Shown here piece by piece: positions 3,571 to 49,673 of a stretch of 64,000 nt of DNA. The position numbers and the translations under genes are program-made. Source of the DNA: a virus. The stretch lies in the IMG/VR virus record IMGVR_UViG_3300045988_082442, positions 96,001 through 160,000 of that record; one strand, 5' to 3'. Each line of letters starts with the position of its first letter. Within the stretch, counting starts at the first letter, position 1. Below the pieces are notes generated by a model. That model saw only the letters and a list, made by a program, of their open reading frames with translations. It was not told the DNA's origin and did not search any database.

Positions 3571-3579
3571 AATGTTTAT

Positions 3580-3629
3580 AAGGATAATTTTACAATCCTT
3601 GCAGGAAACTGCAAACTGTGTAATTTGAT
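3580..3629 (+). ncRNA. CRISPR leader module L1 (two-hairpin element)
   Basis: AAGGAT-aattttaca-ATCCTT then GCAG-gaaa-CTGC then AAACTGTGTAATTTGAT, abutting the first repeat; 7 copies in the window with compensatory changes. Confidence 0.7.
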
Positions 3630-3797
3630 GTTTTATAGCTATGTAAAATGACACAGATGTGAAAGAATCCAACCCAATATAAAGTAGAACAAGGCGTTTT
3701 ATAGCTATGTAAAATGACACAGATGTGAAAGTTCTTTCTAATTTTAATGTCCTTATCATTAGTTTTATAGCTATGTAAAATGACACAGATGTGAAAG
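3630..3797 (+). CRISPR. mini-array 1: 3 repeats, 2 internal spacers of 30 nt
   Basis: Three identical copies of GTTTTATAGCTATGTAAAATGACACAGATGTGAAAG at 3630-3665, 3696-3731 and 3762-3797; spacers AATCCAACCCAATATAAAGTAGAACAAGGC and TTCTTTCTAATTTTAATGTCCTTATCATTA. Confidence 0.9.
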
Positions 3798-28978: not shown

Positions 28979-29008
28979 TATATAAGTTAAAGAATTTATA
29001 ATAAATAT

Positions 29009-29058
29009 AGAGGTAATTTTACAACCTCTGCAGAAAACTGCGAACTGTGTATTTTGAT
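29009..29058 (+). ncRNA. CRISPR leader module L2
   Basis: AGAGGT-aattttaca-ACCTCT, GCAG-aaaa-CTGC, GAACTGTGTATTTTGAT. Confidence 0.7.
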
Positions 29059-30041: not shown

Positions 30042-30048
30042 TAAATAT

Positions 30049-30099
30049 AAGGGTAGTTTTACAATCCTTGCAAGAAATTGTGAACTGTGATATTTTGAT
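30049..30099 (+). ncRNA. CRISPR leader module L3
   Basis: AAGGGT-agttttaca-ATCCTT, GCAA-gaaa-TTGT, GAACTGTGATATTTTGAT. Confidence 0.7.
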
Positions 30100-30325
30100 G
30101 TTTTATAGCTATATAAAATGACACAGATGTGAAAGACACAATTGTTTAAATCTTTTAAAATTTGATGTTTTAGAGCTGTATAAAATAACACAGGTGTGAA
30201 AGGAACGATGTAACTTCTAACAATGAAAAGAGGTTTTAGAGCTGTATAAAATAACACAGGTGTGAAAGGCATTAGTTACTGTGTGTTTTGTTTTAGAGCT
30301 GTATAAAATAACACAAGCGTGAAAG
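30100..30325 (+). CRISPR. mini-array 3: 4 repeats of two subtypes; spacers 31, 30 and 21 nt (degenerate terminal repeat near 30353-30388)
   Basis: R1 GTTTTATAGCTATATAAAATGACACAGATGTGAAAG (30100); R2-R3 GTTTTAGAGCTGTATAAAATAACACAGGTGTGAAAG (30167, 30233); R4 differs only in its tail, ...ACACAAGCGTGAAAG (30290). Confidence 0.85.
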
Positions 30326-30455: not shown

Positions 30456-32003
30456 ATGGAAGATAGAGATAGAACAGAGCATGTATTCAAGAGTATAAAA
30501 TATCATTTGAATAAACTAAAAGACGCAAGACCAGAATATGAATTTTTAATGATAGCAGCACAGGGTAGTCAGAACTATAATTTAGATTTATATACAGAAG
30601 AATATAAATCAGATGTAGATACAGTAGCAATAGTATTACCCCCAGTAGAAGATATTATAAATAATGCACCATTTGTTAGTGAGACAATAATCTTAGGAAA
30701 TAATGAACATATAGATGTAAAAGATTTAAGACAAATAATAGAGTTATTTAAGAAACAGAATATTAAATACTTAGAGATATTATTTACTAAATTTAGAATA
30801 ATCAATAGTAAATATAAAGATGAAGTACTAGAGTTATTGAATAATGCTGATAATATAGCTAAATTAAACCCAAAGAAATTAGTAACTAGCTCATTTGGAA
30901 TGCAGTTAGAAAAGCATAAAGCATTAGAACATCCTTATGAGGGATTAAAAGAGAAAATATCTAAATATGGGTATGATGGAAAGCAATTACACCATATAAT
31001 AAGACTAACACATTTTGTAAATAGGTATATTAAAGACTTAGATTTTAGAAATGCAATGAACTTTGAAGATATAGATGATAATATATATAATGATTTAATA
31101 AAAGCTAAGTTAAATAAATATAGTTTAGATATGGCAAGAAGTGAGGCATTAACACAGACACAAAGATTAATGAACATAAAAGATGAGTTTGTATTATCTT
31201 ATAAAGACCTAGATACATCTAATACATTAGAGTTTCTAAGTACAATAAAGAATAAAATATTTAATAAATATCTTGAATACAAATTTACACCAGAAGATAA
31301 GATAGAAAAACCTATACTAATACCATCAGCAGATAGAATATTTGTAACATCTGATTTACATTTTGGGCATTCAAATATATTAAAATATGAACCTAAAAGA
31401 TGGGAACTAACAGGTACAACTGAATTAAAAGCAATAAGTGAAACATTAATAGATGAAGGATTTACAAATGAAGAAATATCTAATATGCCAGATGATTTAT
31501 GGGATAAATATAGAAATATAACCTGTAATAAATATATGGAAAAACATGATAAAGAACTTATTAGAAGATGGAATGAGAGAGTAAAAGAAGATGACCTTGT
31601 ATTTATATTAGGTGATTTATCTTTCAGAACTGGTACAGAAACAAATAAAATATTAAAACAGTTAAAAGGTAGAAAGGTATTGATAAAAGGTAATCATGAG
31701 AATATCTGGATGAATAAGAATGCTGACCTATCATTATTTGAAGAAATAGTCGATTATAAAGAGATAAAGGTAGATAAATGTATGTTTTGCATGTCACATT
31801 ATCCATTTAGAGTATGGAACCAACAGCATAATGGCTCAATACAATTATTTGGACATATACATAGTAATGAAACAACAAGCCATCCAATGAAAGAAGAAAT
31901 ACCTTATTCATATAATGTAGGTGTAGATGTAAATAATTATTATCCAGTAAGTCTAAAAGACTATGTAGTGACATCTAACTACTGTAATGAATTAGAGATA
32001 TAA
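30456..32003 (+). CDS. fusion protein: RlaP-like nucleotidyltransferase plus metallophosphoesterase
   Basis: ATG 30456 after AAGGAGG; N-terminal AAQGSQNYNLDL...SDVDT (PF10127-like); C-terminal SDLHFGH, LGDLS, GNHE, GHIH. Confidence 0.6.
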   Translation: MEDRDRTEHVFKSIKYHLNKLKDARPEYEFLMIAAQGSQNYNLDLYTEEYKSDVDTVAIVLPPVEDIINNAPFVSETIILGNNEHIDVKDLRQIIELFKKQNIKYLEILFTKFRIINSKYKDEVLELLNNADNIAKLNPKKLVTSSFGMQLEKHKALEHPYEGLKEKISKYGYDGKQLHHIIRLTHFVNRYIKDLDFRNAMNFEDIDDNIYNDLIKAKLNKYSLDMARSEALTQTQRLMNIKDEFVLSYKDLDTSNTLEFLSTIKNKIFNKYLEYKFTPEDKIEKPILIPSADRIFVTSDLHFGHSNILKYEPKRWELTGTTELKAISETLIDEGFTNEEISNMPDDLWDKYRNITCNKYMEKHDKELIRRWNERVKEDDLVFILGDLSFRTGTETNKILKQLKGRKVLIKGNHENIWMNKNADLSLFEEIVDYKEIKVDKCMFCMSHYPFRVWNQQHNGSIQLFGHIHSNETTSHPMKEEIPYSYNVGVDVNNYYPVSLKDYVVTSNYCNELEI

Positions 32004-32073
32004 AAATGTTCAGTAAGATGTTAATAAGAATGTAAGTAAGTTTTCTGGTATCTTGATAAAAACCAGAATATAT

Positions 32074-32146
32074 CTCCTTATGGTGTAATAGGCAAACACG
32101 CTACTGAGTGGTGGTAGAATTATAGGTTCGAGCCCTGTTGGGGAGG
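32074..32146 (+). ncRNA. tRNA-like element A (non-canonical anticodon loop, no encoded CCA)
   Basis: Acceptor CTCCTTA/TGGGGAG, D arm GTGT/ACAC, T arm ATAGG-TTCGAGC-CCTGT are good; anticodon stem CTACT/GGTAG closes the loop GAGTGGT, which lacks U33. Confidence 0.5.
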
Positions 32147-32180
32147 ATAAATTCTATATATAGAATAATGTGTTACGCAG

Positions 32181-32266
32181 TATCTGTATTATAAGGTGAC
32201 AAGTACACAGGACGCTGTGGAGGGTTTCAATTCCTGGTAGTTGATTAGGTCTACAAAATACAGATA
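32181..32266 (+). ncRNA. unassigned structured element B (10-bp closing stem)
   Basis: TATCTGTATT (32181-90) pairs with AATACAGATA (32257-66); internal hairpins CACAG-gacg-CTGTG and GTAG...CTAC; not foldable by eye as a tRNA. Confidence 0.35.
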
Positions 32267-32272
32267 TAATAT

Positions 32273-32344
32273 CAGGTGGTAGTTGATAGGAAAACACTTC
32301 TACTAATGTATGAAGAGATGCTGGTTCGAATCCAGCCCTCCTGA
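32273..32344 (+). ncRNA. tRNA-like element C (acceptor/T-arm minihelix intact, D and anticodon arms degenerate)
   Basis: Acceptor CAGGTGG/CCTCCTG (one U-U), T arm GCTGG-TTCGAAT-CCAGC; no convincing 5-bp anticodon stem or 7-nt loop. Confidence 0.45.
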
Positions 32345-32357
32345 CCTTTTCAAAAAT

Positions 32358-32443
32358 GCAAGTATATCTCAACGGCAGAGCAGCCTCCAGTTGGGGGTGA
32401 AAAGTAGCATACGATTGTGTAGGTTCGAATCCTACTACTTGCA
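32358..32443 (+). ncRNA. tRNA-like element D (long variable region, non-canonical anticodon arm, no CCA)
   Basis: Perfect acceptor GCAAGTA/TACTTGC, T arm GTAGG-TTCGAAT-CCTAC, D arm CTC-aacggca-GAG; the central region does not give a standard anticodon arm. Confidence 0.5.
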
Positions 32444-32446
32444 ACC

Positions 32447-32489
32447 TAAAAATGACACAGATGTAAAAGAATATATTCATAGGTTATAT
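32447..32489 (+). CRISPR. solitary crRNA-like unit: repeat 3' handle (23 nt) plus a 20-nt guide, flanked by tRNA-like D and tRNA-Trp
   Basis: TAAAAATGACACAGATGTAAAAG (32447-32469) matches the 3' part of the array repeats; followed by AATATATTCATAGGTTATAT, ending one base before tRNA-Trp position 1. Confidence 0.65.
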
Positions 32490-32564
32490 AGGAGCTTGGT
32501 GTCAATGGTAGCACGACAGTCTCCAAAACTGTGAGTGAGAGTTCAAATCTTTCAGCTCCTGCCA
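32490..32564 (+). tRNA. tRNA-Trp (anticodon CCA), CCA encoded
   Basis: Acceptor AGGAGCT/AGCTCCT, D arm GTGT/GCAC, anticodon arm ACAGT-CTCCAAA-ACTGT, T arm GAGAG-TTCAAAT-CTTTC, G73, CCA. Confidence 0.85.
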
Positions 32565-32778
32565 ACATATCAATAATTCTAAATAAAATAAAAATAATCA
32601 GATTGGGTTTGGTACACCTGTAAGTTTGGGTATAGATATGGTCCTAAAAGGTCAGTCTTGATTATGCACAGAGATGTGCTGGCGAACGGTGAATTATTGA
32701 TATAAACAGATTGGATTATAACCTCTATAAGTTCAAGATAGAATGGGCTTGAAATACAATCTGTCAGTAATTTAATAT

Positions 32779-32864
32779 GGGTAGTTGGGTGAGTGGCTAA
32801 AACCATCAGACTGTAAATCTGACCTCATTTGAGTTCCCTAGTTCGAATCTAGGACTACCCACCA
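32779..32864 (+). tRNA. tRNA-Tyr (anticodon GTA), long variable arm, CCA encoded
   Basis: Acceptor GGGTAGT/ACTACCC, anticodon arm TCAGA-CTGTAAA-TCTGA, variable arm CCTCATTTGAGTTC, T arm CCTAG-TTCGAAT-CTAGG, A73, CCA. Confidence 0.85.
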
Positions 32865-32868
32865 GTAA

Positions 32869-32918
32869 AAGGGCAATTTTACAGCCCTTGCAGGAAACTG
32901 TGAACTGTGTATTCTGAT
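32869..32918 (+). ncRNA. CRISPR leader module L4
   Basis: AAGGGC-aattttaca-GCCCTT, GCAG-gaaa-CTGT, GAACTGTGTATTCTGAT; begins 5 nt after the tRNA-Tyr CCA. Confidence 0.7.
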
Positions 32919-32919
32919 A

Positions 32920-33144
32920 TTTTTATAGCTATATGAAATAATACAGGTGTAAAAGTGTTCTAACTGTTTTAGAGTATAATCGTTTGTTTTACAGATATAT
33001 GAAATAACACAGGTGTAAAAGCTAGACTGTAAATCTGGTCTCATTTGAGTTACTTTGTAGTTATATGAAATAGCACAGATGTAAAATTGGATAATATGTT
33101 CTGAATTGTTTTATAGCTATACAGAAATGACATGGATGTAAGAG
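32920..33144 (+). CRISPR. mini-array 4: 4 diverged repeats; spacers 30, 30 and 20 nt; directly upstream of the effector gene
   Basis: R1 TTTTTATAGCTATATGAAATAATACAGGTGTAAAAG (32920), R2 GTTTTACAGATATATGAAATAACACAGGTGTAAAAG (32986), R3 ACTTTGTAGTTATATGAAATAGCACAGATGTAAAAT (33052), R4 GTTTTATAGCTATACAGAAATGACATGGATGTAAGAG (33108). Confidence 0.8.
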
Positions 33145-33201
33145 TTACGGCTAGGTATAGACATCAATAGTGATAAATAATTTATTTGGGGGTTAAAAAA
33201 A

Positions 33202-35007
33202 ATGAAAAGAAAAGAGTTAAACGAAGGAGTTCACTGTGTAGAATATGCTTTAATGCACATACCAGATGAATATAAGGAATTGTTAGAAAGACAATATAAT
33301 TATATGGAAGATTTCAAGAATGGCTTTATTAGTTATATGTGGAGATATATTTCAAAGCAACGAAAGGAAAACGAAGAATTTGATAAAGCCATGGCTGAAG
33401 TTAGATACTTAAATACAAAGGAAGGAAGAATTATAAAGAAGGATGAACGCTCTAATAGACTAAGTAAAGCATATACAACAATAGGTAATTTTGTAAAAGA
33501 AACAAAGTTATTAGATTCTGGAAGTAGACGAAAAGAATACTACAGTACAGTAAAAAATGTTTATTATGCTTGGATACCAGATGATAGTAGGTCTTATGCA
33601 ATAGATGATGTTTTATCAGCATTTGAAGTATTCTTCTTTGATAGGGGTAAAGCAGTATTCCAAAAGAAATATGGTCATACAAAAATATTACAATTTAAAC
33701 CAGCATACAGTAGAATGAAGAGTACTGGTGAAATCAATACAATAGTACAAACACCTAGCAGAGTTGTATTTGAAAATGGAAATCCTTATTTTGAAATGTG
33801 GGATTTAAGAGATTTAAAAGATATACCAGAAGAAGAATGTCAAAAAGGTAAAAGACATAGTAAGATAAGATTTAGAATGTATTGTAATGATAAAGATGAG
33901 TTACAAAGTTATATAAAAACAAACCCATACATAGGTGGAACTAAGTTATTAAGATACTGGAAGAAGGGAAAATGGAGATATAGAGTTCAATTAAACTTTG
34001 AAGCAATATCACCAGCAGTAAAACAAATGAGCAACGAAGAGCATATAATGGGAATAGACTTAGGTACAGAAACAATAGCTTGGGTAAGAGATGATGGAGA
34101 ACAAGCAATATGGGAGTTATCACCAGATACACCAAGGGTAACAGAAGAAATAAAGGAAATAGATGTATATTTAGATAATTCAAGAAGGGCTATGAATCCA
34201 GAATTATTTAGGGAAGATGGTACTAGAATAAGTAATAGGGAAGCTAGGGAATTAGGATTAGAAGAAAAGCATTCAAAAAGATATATAAAAGCAGCAGCAA
34301 GAAGAAAAGAATGTTTTAGATATTTAGGAGAAAAAAGAAAACTAAATAACAGAATCCTAGCTAAAAAGTTATTTGAATTAGGTAATGAGTTTCATATAGA
34401 AAATAATAAGGTTTCATCTTGGATGTTAAAAAGATGTCACATGGCTCTTAAAACAGCAATGAAATATGCTTCTGGAGCAAGAGCAAGTGATTATGGGAAA
34501 GTTGTAGCAGATAGAGCCCCAGGAATGATAGATGCAAGATTATCTCAATTAGCAGGACAAAAAGGACTTTCATACCATAAAATTGAGAAGATAGAAGGTT
34601 TTAAATGCACAGAATATAATCATTTTACGGATAAGAATGATTTATTCCAATATCTAAATGACAGAATTGTAGTATTAGATGTTGACAGTGTAAATGATGT
34701 CTATAAAGAGTTTATTACTGATTTTGGTGATACAATTACTGATTTAAAAATAGACGGAAAAGACATAATACTACAAAGAGATTTATATGCAGCAGCAAAA
34801 TTAGTTTATTGCACACCATATAAAGAAACTATTGTGAATAGTAAAGGTAGAAAGGTAGAAGTAACAAGATATAAATTTGATAGAGAAGGGTTTAGCAAAT
34901 TCTTTGTTGAGAAATTTTATCCAAAACATTTAGAGTATATAATGAATCTAAGGGCTGAGTTAGCTAATGGTAAGAAGCTAAGTGGTACTGTATTTGGTAA
35001 TATTTAA
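33202..35007 (+). CDS. compact TnpB/Cas12-like RuvC nuclease (putative type V-like single effector, 601 aa)
   Basis: RuvC-I HIMGIDLGTETIAW (D286), RuvC-II GNEFHIENNKVSSWM (E400), RuvC-III DIILQRDLYAAAKL (D527); TnpB-like order of basic helices between motifs; no CxxC zinc finger in the lid/Nuc region; flanked by array 4 and a solo leader. Confidence 0.75.
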   Translation: MKRKELNEGVHCVEYALMHIPDEYKELLERQYNYMEDFKNGFISYMWRYISKQRKENEEFDKAMAEVRYLNTKEGRIIKKDERSNRLSKAYTTIGNFVKETKLLDSGSRRKEYYSTVKNVYYAWIPDDSRSYAIDDVLSAFEVFFFDRGKAVFQKKYGHTKILQFKPAYSRMKSTGEINTIVQTPSRVVFENGNPYFEMWDLRDLKDIPEEECQKGKRHSKIRFRMYCNDKDELQSYIKTNPYIGGTKLLRYWKKGKWRYRVQLNFEAISPAVKQMSNEEHIMGIDLGTETIAWVRDDGEQAIWELSPDTPRVTEEIKEIDVYLDNSRRAMNPELFREDGTRISNREARELGLEEKHSKRYIKAAARRKECFRYLGEKRKLNNRILAKKLFELGNEFHIENNKVSSWMLKRCHMALKTAMKYASGARASDYGKVVADRAPGMIDARLSQLAGQKGLSYHKIEKIEGFKCTEYNHFTDKNDLFQYLNDRIVVLDVDSVNDVYKEFITDFGDTITDLKIDGKDIILQRDLYAAAKLVYCTPYKETIVNSKGRKVEVTRYKFDREGFSKFFVEKFYPKHLEYIMNLRAELANGKKLSGTVFGNI

Positions 35008-35017
35008 TATAAATTAT

Positions 35018-35089
35018 AGGGTAATTTTACAGCCCTTGCAGGAAACTGCAAATAAAATATCATTTTAAAGCTCTATGATATTGTAAAAG
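35018..35089 (+). ncRNA. solo leader module L5 plus truncated degenerate repeat
   Basis: AGGGT-aattttaca-GCCCT, GCAG-gaaa-CTGC, then ATTTTAAAGCTCTATGATATTGTAAAAG (35062-35089), which resembles the repeat ends. Confidence 0.6.
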
Positions 35090-35124: not shown

Positions 35125-35156
35125 ATATTTTTTGAATATTTTTTCATTTTAATTTC

Positions 35157-35192
35157 TTTCTATAGCTATTTAAAATACTATAGATATAGAGT
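35157..35192 (+). repeat. isolated degenerate CRISPR repeat
   Basis: TTTCTATAGCTATTTAAAATACTATAGATATAGAGT compared with GTTTTATAGCTATGTAAAATGACACAGATGTGAAAG (about three quarters identical by eye). Confidence 0.5.
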
Positions 35193-45269: not shown

Positions 45270-45276
45270 TAGATAT

Positions 45277-45309
45277 AAGGGTAATTTTATAACCCTTGCA
45301 GGAAACTGC
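45277..45309 (+). ncRNA. solo leader module L6 (no intact repeat follows)
   Basis: AAGGGT-aattttata-ACCCTT, GCAG-gaaa-CTGC; then GAACTATTTTTAATAGATATAAAAGC, only a faint repeat remnant. Confidence 0.6.
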
Positions 45310-45390
45310 GAACTATTTTTAATAGATATAAAAGCTTTTTTCGATACCCCAATTTATAAGATAAATAAAACAGAATAGAGGTAGGAAGTT

Positions 45391-47859
45391 ATGAGAAATT
45401 TAGTAGTATTAAGAGGATGCCCAGGTGCAGGGAAATCAACTTGGATAAAAGAAAATGGTTTAGAGCCTTATACATTATGTCCAGATACAATAAGGACAAT
45501 GGTAAGTGCTCCAGTATATACAGAAGAACATGATACTGAGATGACTATATCTCAGCAAAATGAAACTTATACATGGAATTTATTATTTGAATTACTTGAA
45601 AATAGAATGAAGAATGGTGATTTTACAGTAATAGATGCAACACATAGCAGGTCATCAGATTTTAGTAGATATAACGATTTATGTTCTACATATAGATATA
45701 GAAGATATACTGTATCATTTACAGATGTACCAGAAGAAGTATGTAAACAAAGAAATCTGGAAAGAGATGCCTATAAACAGGTACCACCTGAAGTTATAGA
45801 AAAGATGTATGCTAGATTTGCAACACAAAATAAAACAAGTGGATGGACAGAAATTCCAAGAGATAAATTCTGGGAAGTATTTAGTAATAAAGTGTTTGAT
45901 TTTAATAAGTATGAAAAAGTTCATATATTTGGTGATATTCATGGATGTTATGACCCACTAGAACAATATATAGTAGATAGCTATAATGGAGATGATGTAC
46001 ATGAAGATTTAAGCCCAGAAACATTAAAGAATTTATTAAATAAAGATGAGGCTTATATATTTGTAGGTGATTACTTAGATAGAGGATTACAAAATAAAGA
46101 AGTTTTAAAATTTATGATTTCAATATGTCAATTAGATAATGTTTTATGCTTAGAGGGAAATCACGAAAGATATTTATGGTATTGGGCTAATGAACAAGAT
46201 AATGAAATAAGAAGTAAAGAGTTCTTTAATCATACAGTACCACAAATAAGAGGTATATCTCCATCTGATATAAGACAATTTTATAGAAAATTAGGACAAA
46301 TGGCATTATTTACATTTAATAATGAAACATATTTTGTAACACATGGTGGATTATCATTATTACCAGAACACTTACCATTAGTATCAACAAATTGTCTAAT
46401 AAATGGTACAGGAAGATTTAAGTTTCCAATAGATGAAAGATATACAGAAAATATGCAAGGTAAAAATGTATTACAAGTACATGGTCATAGAAATATGGAA
46501 TGTGATTATAAAGGAAAACTACCTTTATCATTCTCACTAGAAGATAGAGTTGAGTTTGGTGGTAATTTTGTAGTATTAGAAATAAATGAGAAAGGTAATT
46601 ACTTCCATAGAATAAAGAATGATACATTTAGGGAACCTGATTATGACAATAAAGAAGAAGAAATAATACCAGCATTTGATATGACAATGGACAATATTGT
46701 AGAAAGAATGAGATTGAATAAGAACATAAAAGAAACAGTGCTACCAGATGGTATATCATCTTTTAACTTTACTAGACAAGCATTTGAAAAAGATAGATGG
46801 AACTCAGAAACAGTTAAAGCAAGGGGATTATTTATAGATACTGAAAACAATAAAATAGTTGCAAGAGGATATGAGAAGTTCTTTAATATAAATGAACAAG
46901 AAAACTGTAAATTATTTAATCTAAAATCATTATTTAATACAGGATTACCTGTAATTGCATATAAGAAGTATAATGGATTTTTAGGAATATTAAGTTATTA
47001 TCATGATGAGTTAAAATTCCATTCAAAATCTACTAATATAGGTGATTATGCAAACTACTTTAAAGACCTATTTTATAAAAGATTTACTGACAAACAAATA
47101 GATATGATTACAGATTATTTAAAGAATAATAATGTATCAATGGTATTTGAAGTTATAGACATAGACAATGACCCACATATCATAGAAGAAAAAGAAAGCA
47201 GAGTAGTTTTATTAGATATAATCAGAAATGAAGTAGAGTTTAGCAGATTACCTTATGACCAGTTATTACTTTTAGCAAACTTATGGGGAATAAAAGAAGA
47301 TGGTGTAAAACAAATATATAAAGAATTTACATCATACAGAGAGTTGACTGAGTTCTATGAAATACATAAAGATGATAAAAACTTTAATGATATTGATATA
47401 GAAGGAGTTGTAATAGAATGTGGTAACTTTATGACAAAGCTTAAATTTAATTATTATAGATTCTGGAAGGGTATGAGAAGTGTTGCAGAAAAATTACAAA
47501 GTGGAAGAGATAATGTAAAATTAAGTATGTTATACAATGCAACTGCAAACTATTTCTATAAGTTTGTAAAAGATATGGTAGAAGAAAAACAGTTAGAACT
47601 TCTAAAAATAAAAGATACATTAGGATTGGGAGATATAAATGCTGGTGATTTAAGAAGAGCAGAATTAGACTTTGAAAATAATATGATTACAATTCATAAA
47701 AGAGATAGAAGAGCTTATTATATAGGAAATGATATTACAGCAGAAAATGTTATTACAGCAACAACAACCCCAGAAATAATGAACAAACTATCAGAACTAC
47801 AAAAATCAAAGGATATAATAACATTAAGAAACGAATATTATAGAAATGGTGGTGTTTAA
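45391..47859 (+). CDS. Pnkp-like RNA repair enzyme (polynucleotide kinase, metallophosphatase, RNA ligase)
   Basis: Walker A GCPGAGKST; GDIHGC, GDYLDRG, GNHE, HGH; ligase motif I AYKKYNGFLG; the same domain order as bacterial Pnkp. Confidence 0.75.
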   Translation: MRNLVVLRGCPGAGKSTWIKENGLEPYTLCPDTIRTMVSAPVYTEEHDTEMTISQQNETYTWNLLFELLENRMKNGDFTVIDATHSRSSDFSRYNDLCSTYRYRRYTVSFTDVPEEVCKQRNLERDAYKQVPPEVIEKMYARFATQNKTSGWTEIPRDKFWEVFSNKVFDFNKYEKVHIFGDIHGCYDPLEQYIVDSYNGDDVHEDLSPETLKNLLNKDEAYIFVGDYLDRGLQNKEVLKFMISICQLDNVLCLEGNHERYLWYWANEQDNEIRSKEFFNHTVPQIRGISPSDIRQFYRKLGQMALFTFNNETYFVTHGGLSLLPEHLPLVSTNCLINGTGRFKFPIDERYTENMQGKNVLQVHGHRNMECDYKGKLPLSFSLEDRVEFGGNFVVLEINEKGNYFHRIKNDTFREPDYDNKEEEIIPAFDMTMDNIVERMRLNKNIKETVLPDGISSFNFTRQAFEKDRWNSETVKARGLFIDTENNKIVARGYEKFFNINEQENCKLFNLKSLFNTGLPVIAYKKYNGFLGILSYYHDELKFHSKSTNIGDYANYFKDLFYKRFTDKQIDMITDYLKNNNVSMVFEVIDIDNDPHIIEEKESRVVLLDIIRNEVEFSRLPYDQLLLLANLWGIKEDGVKQIYKEFTSYRELTEFYEIHKDDKNFNDIDIEGVVIECGNFMTKLKFNYYRFWKGMRSVAEKLQSGRDNVKLSMLYNATANYFYKFVKDMVEEKQLELLKIKDTLGLGDINAGDLRRAELDFENNMITIHKRDRRAYYIGNDITAENVITATTTPEIMNKLSELQKSKDIITLRNEYYRNGGV

Positions 47860-49186: not shown

Positions 49187-49193
49187 TAAATAT

Positions 49194-49243
49194 AAGGATA
49201 ATTTTACAATCCTTACAGGAAACTGTGAACTGTGTAATTTAAT
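49194..49243 (+). ncRNA. CRISPR leader module L7
   Basis: AAGGAT-aattttaca-ATCCTT, ACAG-gaaa-CTGT (compensatory relative to GCAG/CTGC), GAACTGTGTAATTTAAT. Confidence 0.7.
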
Positions 49244-49673
49244 ATCCTATAGCTATATAAAATGACACAGATGTGAAAGTATTGCAACATTAAAATACCC
49301 TATTTTTGGGGTTTTATGGCTATATAAAATAACACAGATGTGAAAGAGGGATTTTGTTTTGTTAGCATTTATTTCTGTTTTATAGCTATATAAAATGACA
49401 CAGATGTGAAAGTCTGGAACAAATCTTGAAAAGTCCAGCTTTGTTTTATGGCTATATAAAATAACACAGGTGTGAAATAATTCAAAGTATTGTTCAAATA
49501 GTTTCTGTGTTTTATAGTTATATAAAATGACACAGATGTGAAAGGAATACTAAAATAAAGTAGCAATTGAGCTAGTTCTATAGCTATATAAAATGACACA
49601 GATATGAAAGTTAAGCTCATGAATGATAGCAACAATAGTTTTATAGATATATAAGAAGCAGAAAGGAGAAAAT
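49244..49673 (+). CRISPR. mini-array 5: 6 good repeats plus a degenerate terminal repeat; spacers 31, 30, 30, 30, 30 and 27 nt
   Basis: Repeats at 49244, 49311, 49377, 49443, 49509, 49575 (for example GTTTTATAGCTATATAAAATGACACAGATGTGAAAG at 49377); terminal GTTTTATAGATATATAAGAAGCAGAAAGGAGAAAAT at 49638. Confidence 0.9.

Follow-up and report, generated by a model that had tools for sequence, protein, structure and literature searches.

A solitary CRISPR repeat fragment in the tRNA cluster of a gut phage encoding a compact Cas12-like protein

Organisation of the locus

The window, the whole 64,000-nucleotide stretch of viral DNA analysed here, derives from a metagenome assembly of the human gut (ENA ERZ28663717, ZEEV15-1 scaffold_17), in which the scaffold containing it measures 213,644 bp; the window has a G+C content of 29% and carries nearly all of its long ORFs on the + strand. 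It contains a cluster of tRNAs, the gene of a 601-aa Cas12-like effector, and five small CRISPR arrays, whose repeat is 36 nt long (GTTTTATAGCTATRTAAAATGACACAGATGTGAAAG) and whose spacers measure ~30 nt (Table 1). Upstream of the tRNA cluster, the ORF at 30456-32003 encodes a member of the calcineurin-like phosphoesterase family, which has many phage homologues. Within the cluster, between a tRNA-like element (D) and tRNA-Trp, lies a fragment of the CRISPR repeat (the handle) followed by 20 nt in the position of a guide.

Table 1. Features of the tRNA cluster, the neighbouring CRISPR array and the effector gene, in window coordinates
Feature	Position	Strand	Remarks
tRNA-like element D	32358..32443	+	Rfam tRNA model 38.7 bits; ARAGORN tRNA-???
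ACC linker, D discriminator base to repeat fragment	32444..32446	+	ATC in sister strain L026
Solitary repeat fragment (handle), 3′ 21-23 nt of 36-nt CRISPR repeat	32447..32469	+	
20 nt in guide position, AATATATTCATAGGTTATAT	32470..32489	+	
Canonical tRNA-Trp (cca)	32490..32564	+	CCA encoded; ARAGORN and Rfam, 54.8 bits
Array 4 leader: hairpin 1, hairpin 2 (GAAA loop), anti-repeat	32868..32915	+	Starts 4 nt after tRNA-Tyr
CRISPR array 4, 4 repeats	32920..33144	+	Immediately upstream of effector gene
601-aa Cas12-like effector	33202..35007	+	RuvC residues D286, E400, D527
Further leader copies	3579-3626, 29008-29055, 30048-30095, 49193-49240, 35016-35088, 45276-45335		

The boundaries that a preliminary description of this DNA had drawn for the end of D, the linker, the repeat piece, the 20 nt and the start of tRNA-Trp all hold, the last being placed at the same base by both ARAGORN and Rfam. 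The repeat pattern AATGACACAGATGTRAAAG matches the last 19 nt of the fragment (TAAAAATGACACAGATGTAAAAG) with 0 mismatches; at up to three mismatches it occurs 19 times in the window, where shuffles predict 0.19, and apart from the fragment all of these matches (18) fall inside the five arrays. Over its full length the fragment agrees with the best array repeats at 20 of 23 positions, the array repeats being equally close among themselves, and over 21 nt it shows one difference, which is polymorphic; array 4 lies ~450 nt downstream. The 17 nt on its 5′ side (ACTACTTGCAACCTAAA) share nothing with the 5′ half of the repeat, which makes the orphan truly a 3′ fragment, as had been proposed. The handle stands directly 5′ of the 20 nt on the strand used by all arrays and, as a repeat-like match of at least 16 bp outside the arrays and within a CRISPR-cas locus, it belongs among the solitary repeat units. 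The earlier comparison of this layout with tRNA-gRNA designs is borne out on both sides, with an intact D acceptor stem and T arm upstream and a canonical tRNA downstream. An assembly artefact was considered and is unlikely, as both flanks are syntenic with those of a sister strain (L026) and a second assembly is identical: a contig from the Logan assembly of run ERR1137060 (L014) has 100% identity over 1211 nt, the two samples possibly not being independent.

Under the Rfam model, D has normal acceptor, D and T arms, and 32 nt replace the 17-nt anticodon arm. A stem of 5-6 bp, with a loop of 4 nt at its tip (in one register as many as 6 nt), occupies the site of the anticodon loop, the variable region of ~20 nt is unpaired, and ARAGORN gives the element a span of 32357-32446. 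D is not a decoding tRNA. It has been kept with compensatory changes in three related loci (L010 1145-1231, L023 8821-8908 and L024 8991-9077). In IMG/VR, the sole match of a DNA pattern taken from its 3′ end was an unrelated phage tRNA-Tyr, and a more specific D pattern gave 0 matches. The variable region (UUGUGU) was also considered as an anti-repeat acting in cis on the handle, and rejected: it is ancestral, it belongs to the T-stem junction, and it is present in strains that have no handle.

Several more tRNA-like elements without a usable anticodon occur in the same clusters, for example 'Ile(aat)' at 32273-32346 of the window; punctuation of the transcript and a decoy function are both possibilities for the role of such elements. 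Most relatives also have, between tRNAs, a conserved element that is not itself a tRNA (AGGTGACAAGTACACAGGACGCTGTGGAGGGTTTCAATTCC…; window 32183-32260, L010 100-165, L023 7985-8050, L001 8905-8975); it is missing from L026 and is probably a tRNA remnant or a further small RNA. An ATAT-like motif is found 5′ of most tRNAs in these phages.

A compact Cas12-like effector

The effector gene begins 713 nt downstream of the orphan unit and is flanked by arrays on both sides. The protein has no Pfam family and no match among PDB sequences. In a Foldseek search of the PDB, its AlphaFold model, of moderate quality (pLDDT 66), was closest to Cas12m2 (8hhl, E=5.7e-9, probability 1.0, with TM-scores of only ~0.3), followed by Cas12f, Cas12o, Cas12p and CasLambda, the probability being 1.0 to both Cas12m and Cas12f. 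Its RuvC D-E-D triad, its predicted TnpB-like fold and the adjoining arrays are those expected of a Cas12 protein; no named subtype fits by Pfam or PDB sequence, and we treat it as an unnamed compact type V effector. No terminator was predicted from 31900 to 33250, a segment that takes in the tRNA cluster and array 4 and reaches the effector gene.

The effector family is small, with 8 clusters recovered by word search and ~20 full-length representatives at 50% identity. A single-protein search of IMG/VR found no relatives and an alignment search of the same database found one locus (L015); none were found in GTDB genomes, and JGI metagenomes contributed five distant loci, 0 of 5 having a D-handle unit. 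In the family alignment, about half of the members have the RuvC-I aspartate replaced by N (in one case H) and the RuvC-II glutamate by D or R. Members without RuvC catalytic residues may bind without cutting; the window effector keeps D-E-D.

Leader-encoded tracr-like RNAs

A conserved leader of ~47 nt precedes every array. To describe its structure, leaders of the window and of seven related loci, each with its first repeat (27 pairs), were aligned together with one fused unit, and base pairs were counted for a structure specified by the analyst. Across these 28 aligned units, hairpin 1 was 100% paired, with four of its five pairs compensatory; hairpin 2, which has a GNRA-type loop, was 95% paired (three of five compensatory); and a pseudoknot between the loop of hairpin 1 (UUUUAC) and the final bases of the repeat (GUAAAA) was 99% paired (three of six compensatory), U-A having turned into C-G in two cases. 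The covariation score of the whole structure was reached by 0 of 500 shuffles, and slid registers all scored far lower. The 14 nt that follow hairpin 2 form an anti-repeat, whose longest Watson-Crick run has a mean of 8.25 with its own repeat and 5.2 with the repeats of others (as high in 0 of 10,000 permutations); L015, which has two arrays with different repeats, has a matching anti-repeat for each. Together, the covariation and the matching of anti-repeat to repeat identify the leader as a small tracr-like RNA.

The orphan handle retains both segments through which a repeat would dock on this RNA, namely the anti-repeat-binding segment AAAATGACACAG (32449-32460) and the pseudoknot segment GTAAAA (32463-32468), the partner of the leader hairpin loop, and it pairs with the window leaders as well as the array repeats do. 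The anti-repeat duplex in the window phage is short, consisting of 6 bp, a mismatch and 4 bp. With both docking segments kept, a released RNA is predicted to be competent for loading, and this is our best argument on its behalf. The preliminary description had pictured an RNA with the architecture of a mature type V crRNA. With a tracr-like leader in every array the system does not look crRNA-only, and the 46-nt RNA would need that partner in trans.

Two leader copies in the window are attached to single repeats. The one at 35016-35088, right after the effector stop codon, joins a leader to a single divergent repeat that ends GTAAAAG and has a co-varied anti-repeat pair (AATATCAT : ATGATATT); after it comes a terminator-like hairpin (AAACTGATTT-AAAA-ATCAGTTT), and at ~35155-35192 there is a second degenerate repeat. 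In the other, at 45276-45335, a TTT loop links the leader anti-repeat to a short repeat-like handle (CTATT-TTT-AATAG-ATATAAAAG), giving a single-guide-like layout just upstream of an 822-aa ORF at 45391.

Origin of the handle and of the 20 nt

The closest relative, L026, is a contig of the Logan assembly SRR29381478 that was found through a homologue 98% identical to the flanking phosphoesterase. It is near-identical to the window from the tRNA-like 'Ile' through D, and again from the 20 nt to past tRNA-Trp, and the difference falls exactly at the handle. After D, the window reads ACC TAAAAATGA CACAGATGTAAAAG AATATATTCATAGGTTATAT, whereas L026 reads ATC TAAATATGA ATATATTGAGAAGGTACAACTT AATATATTCATAGGTTATAT and then continues into tRNA-Trp; across the junction its allele is …GGTACAACTT joined directly to AATATATTCATAGGTTATAT, with ACAACTT as the 5′ flank of the 20 nt and no repeat. 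In L026, this region folds into a 15-bp hairpin (-14 kcal/mol, z = -4.9) in which the 20 nt pair with the upstream GAATATATT, the identical 20 nt consisting of the 3′ arm of the hairpin and an ATAT-type pre-tRNA leader. The supposed ready-made guide thus stands before tRNA-Trp in a strain without any handle, and is ancestral local sequence rather than an acquired spacer.

More distant relatives place the change in the window lineage. L010 and L024 have a hairpin after D with the same loop (GAAGGTACAAC) and a stem that is different yet complementary, and parsimony makes the hairpin the ancestral state and the handle the derived one; in L023 the next tRNA-like element follows D directly. The arrangement that had been likened to an engineered design is not conserved in these phages. 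The D-handle arrangement is absent from L026, L010, L023 and L024, so the conservation by which functional solitary repeats are recognised is lacking, and its absence from the closest sister strain leaves no sign of purifying selection. The unit is known from one lineage, represented by the window's own scaffold and the one identical contig; L025, whose contig ends inside the cluster, and L028, whose contig ends 35 nt after the gene, yielded no tRNA region. The post-D sequence of L010 was considered as a degenerate handle plus guide, and this was rejected once L024 and L026 showed a conserved hairpin there, with a stem that is varied but complementary.

The analyses above show the anatomy of the unit, its derived origin and its pairing modules. 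Judged by the comparison of strains, the handle is a young patch that is not conserved and that took the place of 22-27 nt, with short homologies at both junctions, and the unit as a whole is a young, lineage-specific solitary repeat unit rather than a conserved, purpose-built guide.

Targets of the guide and of the spacers

The preliminary description had recommended a database search for a protospacer, and no outside target for the 20-mer emerged from the window, IMG/VR, INPHARED phages or the related loci, the GTDB matches being at chance level. At up to five mismatches there was no near match elsewhere in the 64-kb window and no convincing promoter match, the rest of the genome (~150 kb) lying outside this search, and IMG/VR gave 0 matches. 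In 596 Gb of GTDB genomes, two exact matches were found, in a Chlorobiota MAG and an Oceanobacillus MAG; these taxa are unrelated, two is about the number estimated to arise by chance, and both matches are judged to be chance. Among related loci, the nearest partial match covers 15/16 nt in the phosphoesterase gene of L001 and is not significant (E=0.12 for that query, 23 queries tried). All 20 window spacers were without a match in INPHARED phages, and a comparison of all array regions with all related loci gathered gave no spacer-protospacer pair except for tRNA-Tyr, so that no usable pair was available from which to derive a PAM. Sister phages that lack the handle provide the one match known for the guide, at this same locus. 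As a repeat that lands beside old sequence automatically 'targets' the ancestral allele, this match is not evidence of selection or function.

Little weight attaches to the agreement in length, pointed out in the preliminary description, between the 20 nt and two short spacers, the one in array 3 being 21 nt long and leader-like. By eye, this spacer (30269-30289) reads as a degenerate copy of the leader anti-repeat (ACTGTGT…TTT). The 20-nt spacer of array 4 (33088-33107), beside the effector, is shared with L001 9888-9907 (17/17 nt), which is unusual for an acquired spacer, and both short spacers may be leader remnants.

Three other spacers were of note in their own right. Spacer 33022-33051 of array 4 consists of tRNA-Tyr anticodon and variable-arm sequence, aligning over 28 nt with two mismatches to the phage's own tRNA-Tyr at 32808-32835 (26/30 of the spacer overall) and also resembling the tRNA-Tyr of L010, L005, L015 and L016; its differences keep the anticodon stem paired, and it therefore seems to target the tRNA-Tyr gene of another element, although a search of IMG/VR with this spacer gave 0 matches. 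Spacer 49413-49442 is held in common with L010 1592-1614 (23/23 nt), in a phage whose effector is just 52-53% identical to that of the window phage, implying either a conserved target or an exchange of arrays. In array 1, the first 16 nt of a spacer (3732-3747) match perfectly the phage's own 157-aa ORF (17961-17946, - strand; E=0.001 in a local search, 5′ flank TCCTTC), and this spacer may be a partial self-target.

Guide units among the tRNAs of related phages

In the window (tRNA-Tyr), L005, L015 and L016, leaders begin at a distance of a few nt to ~65 nt from the 3′ end of a tRNA or tmRNA, and in L005, 27 nt separate the last repeat of an array from tRNA-Thr. This terminal 'spacer' (2770-2796) repeats exactly, in its first 16 nt, the D-arm region of tRNA-Thr (2804-2819), and it could be a duplication scar or a self-matching guide.

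The most striking analogue of the window unit lies in L015 (IMGVR_UViG_3300035498_000724), a distant relative whose effector is 46% identical, where a fused unit occupies 1722-1810 between tRNA-Cys and tRNA-Phe. It consists, in order, of hairpin 1, hairpin 2, the anti-repeat TATATTAG, a 3-nt loop, CTAATATA-GTACTAAAGG, and a 22-nt guide that abuts position 1 of tRNA-Phe, and it folds as expected. Private compensatory changes are present in both the anti-repeat duplex and the pseudoknot, where C-G replaces the U-A of the arrays, and the unit accordingly seems to be under selection as an RNA. In IMG/VR the L015 guide has no match but itself. As a leader-handle-guide fusion that evolved independently, this unit argues that guide units among tRNAs recur in the phage family. 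Taken together, the interleaving of tRNAs and leaders, the L015 fusion, and the run of sequence free of predicted terminators make it credible that tRNA processing punctuates guide RNAs in this phage family. In respect of the earlier idea of tRNA-released guides, the recurrence of tRNA-embedded units stands in its favour, and the particular arrangement in the window is not conserved. The leader-encoded mini-tracr with its pseudoknot, and the tRNA-flanked single-guide fusion of L015, are more robust discoveries than the window orphan.

Proposed mechanism and alternative explanations

The explanation to which we give about an even chance is that the unit was born by recombination, that its RNA would be processed and loadable, and that any function would be at most sibling-directed or regulatory. 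A CRISPR repeat of the phage itself would have been the source of a 19-21-nt patch, copied from its 3′ end probably via short homologies (TAAA(A/T)ATGA on the left, AAT on the right), and this patch would have taken the place of the 5′ arm and loop of the older hairpin between D and tRNA-Trp. In a poly-tRNA transcript, RNase P would cut at the 5′ end of tRNA-Trp, and RNase Z, or RNase E plus trimming, would cut near the 3′ end of D, freeing an RNA of ~43-46 nt that comprises the repeat handle and the 20 nt. General tRNA biology leads to the expectation that the RNase P cut sets the 3′ end of the RNA upstream. At the other end, the 3′ trailer of D begins ACC (or CCU, by the ends that ARAGORN assigns); in Bacillus, RNase Z can be inhibited by an encoded C74-C75, and with a trailer of this type the 5′ end of the released RNA may be ragged. 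Carrying both leader-pairing segments on its handle, the freed RNA should assemble with the leader tracr-like RNA and the 601-aa Cas12-like protein. The layout would thus very plausibly yield a crRNA-like RNA through tRNA processing. Its transcription, its processing sites, its loading onto the protein and any effect on a target are what we infer from this arrangement. As the only match of the guide is the sister locus, a function, if there is one, would be sibling-directed or regulatory rather than classical spacer immunity.

If the unit were instead a neutral recombination scar, with a repeat fragment pasted by chance between tRNAs and an RNA that is a by-product, not loaded or without effect, and due to decay, one would not expect the handle to be free of damage wherever it pairs with the leader RNA, to lie in the right orientation inside the predicted transcription unit of the effector, and to have both boundaries at predicted processing sites, nor would analogous tRNA-flanked units be expected in L015 with compensatory changes that indicate selection. 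A scar would, on the other hand, fit the absence of the unit from four relatives, a guide made of pre-existing sequence, and the searches of the window, IMG/VR, INPHARED phages and related loci that gave no target (with GTDB at chance level), CRISPR repeats recombine readily, and many solitary repeat units have been ascribed to spurious repeat duplication (10.1101/2023.03.03.530964). We consider this explanation possible, if somewhat unlikely.

A regulator or decoy of the kind put forward for solitary repeat units and RNA anti-CRISPRs, whose RNA would bind the effector or titrate the leader tracr-like RNA and so tune the phage's own Cas12, or else an RNA that guides cleavage-free binding at a partial match, is improbable on present evidence. 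Standalone repeats with regulatory roles are widespread, also beside cas12a (10.1101/2023.03.03.530964), the genome has the two further leader-attached single-repeat units at 35016-35088 and 45276-45335, and a 20-nt guide is short beside 30-nt spacers; against this, no partial promoter match was found at up to five mismatches within 64 kb of the 214-kb genome, and the sister strain L026 does not conserve the unit. Still less probable is a dedicated crRNA against an external target in a host or foreign element, with a guide selected for that target and maturation by tRNA processing alone, for while the layout matches engineered tRNA-gRNA designs and engineered tRNA-flanked Cas12a crRNAs do work (PMC6037731, PMC7502738), the 20 nt are older than the handle, their last 4-5 nt are a generic pre-tRNA leader motif, no protospacer appeared in the searches (the 15/16 match in L001 being non-significant), and the system appears to need a tracr-like partner.

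A bolder extension of the recombination-born unit would combine it with the recurrence of such units in this family of huge gut phages: natural tRNA-guide-tRNA cassettes, the L015 fusion included, would mature guides for the phage's own Cas12 through the host tRNA machinery, and the window guide would spare its carrier, in which the repeat occupies the PAM side, and would recognise the uninserted sibling allele at co-infection. This is a long shot.

Relationship to known systems

Mini-arrays and solitary repeat units of viruses were reportedly described in 2019 by Faure, Medvedeva and co-workers, and polycistronic tRNA-gRNA arrays are said to have been engineered by Xie et al. in 2015. Solitary repeat units and their recombinational origin are already known, as are natural single-guide RNAs for Cas9, and for standalone repeat-like elements in CRISPR-cas loci a recombinational origin is accepted (Shmakov et al. 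2023, 10.1101/2023.03.03.530964). Like them, the window unit is a repeat-derived sequence of at least 16 nt, outside arrays and inside a cas locus, from which a crRNA-like RNA is expected; unlike them, it consists of the 3′ half of the repeat alone, is not conserved in the closest relative, and has tRNA-type structures on both sides instead of a second repeat or a terminator.

With engineered tRNA-gRNA arrays and tRNA-flanked Cas12a crRNAs (PMC6037731, PMC7502738), it shares a guide placed between tRNA structures, with a 3′ end that abuts tRNA +1. It differs from the engineered arrays in being natural, in having an upstream element without an anticodon and a guide of incidental local sequence, and in probably needing a separate tracr-like RNA. 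A literature search, in which journal coverage was incomplete, found no description of natural tRNA-flanked guide units.

The viral sgRNAs that phages encode for Cas9 (10.64898/2026.06.01.729453, 10.64898/2026.06.03.729762) are likewise natural anti-repeat/repeat fusions and have the layout of L015 1722-1810 and window 45276-45335, but the published RNAs hijack or inhibit a host Cas9, whereas the present units are part of a Cas12-like system that the phage itself encodes; tRNA flanking goes unmentioned in 10.64898/2026.06.01.729453. The tracrRNA and omegaRNA scaffolds of compact Cas12 and TnpB proteins (Cas12p, 10.1101/2025.01.20.633832) also combine an anti-repeat duplex with a pseudoknot that engages the final bases of the repeat, and the predicted fold of the window effector is nearest to Cas12m, Cas12f and Cas12p. 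In contrast to those systems, the scaffold here is of ~47 nt and lies in the array leader, on the same strand and before every array, and the window effector has no sequence-level match to the solved Cas12 proteins.

Conclusions and perspectives

The comparison with the sister strain has caught a solitary repeat unit at birth, and provides direct evidence on the origin of such units; it also illustrates that a newborn unit automatically targets the ancestral allele. Apart from the orphan unit, an uncharacterised compact Cas12 family of ~600 aa, with a leader-encoded tracr-like RNA of ~47 nt and natural single-guide fusions, has come to light and is of practical interest for small genome editors. 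If release by RNase P and RNase Z, followed by loading, proves true, the window unit would be the first natural counterpart found of the tRNA-gRNA engineering design, and would mean that a phage can outsource the maturation of its guides to host tRNA enzymes. Were guides of this kind also to spare their carrier and recognise uninserted siblings, the consequences for these phages could include allele-specific exclusion, or a homing, gene-drive-like spread of the cassette through recombinational repair.
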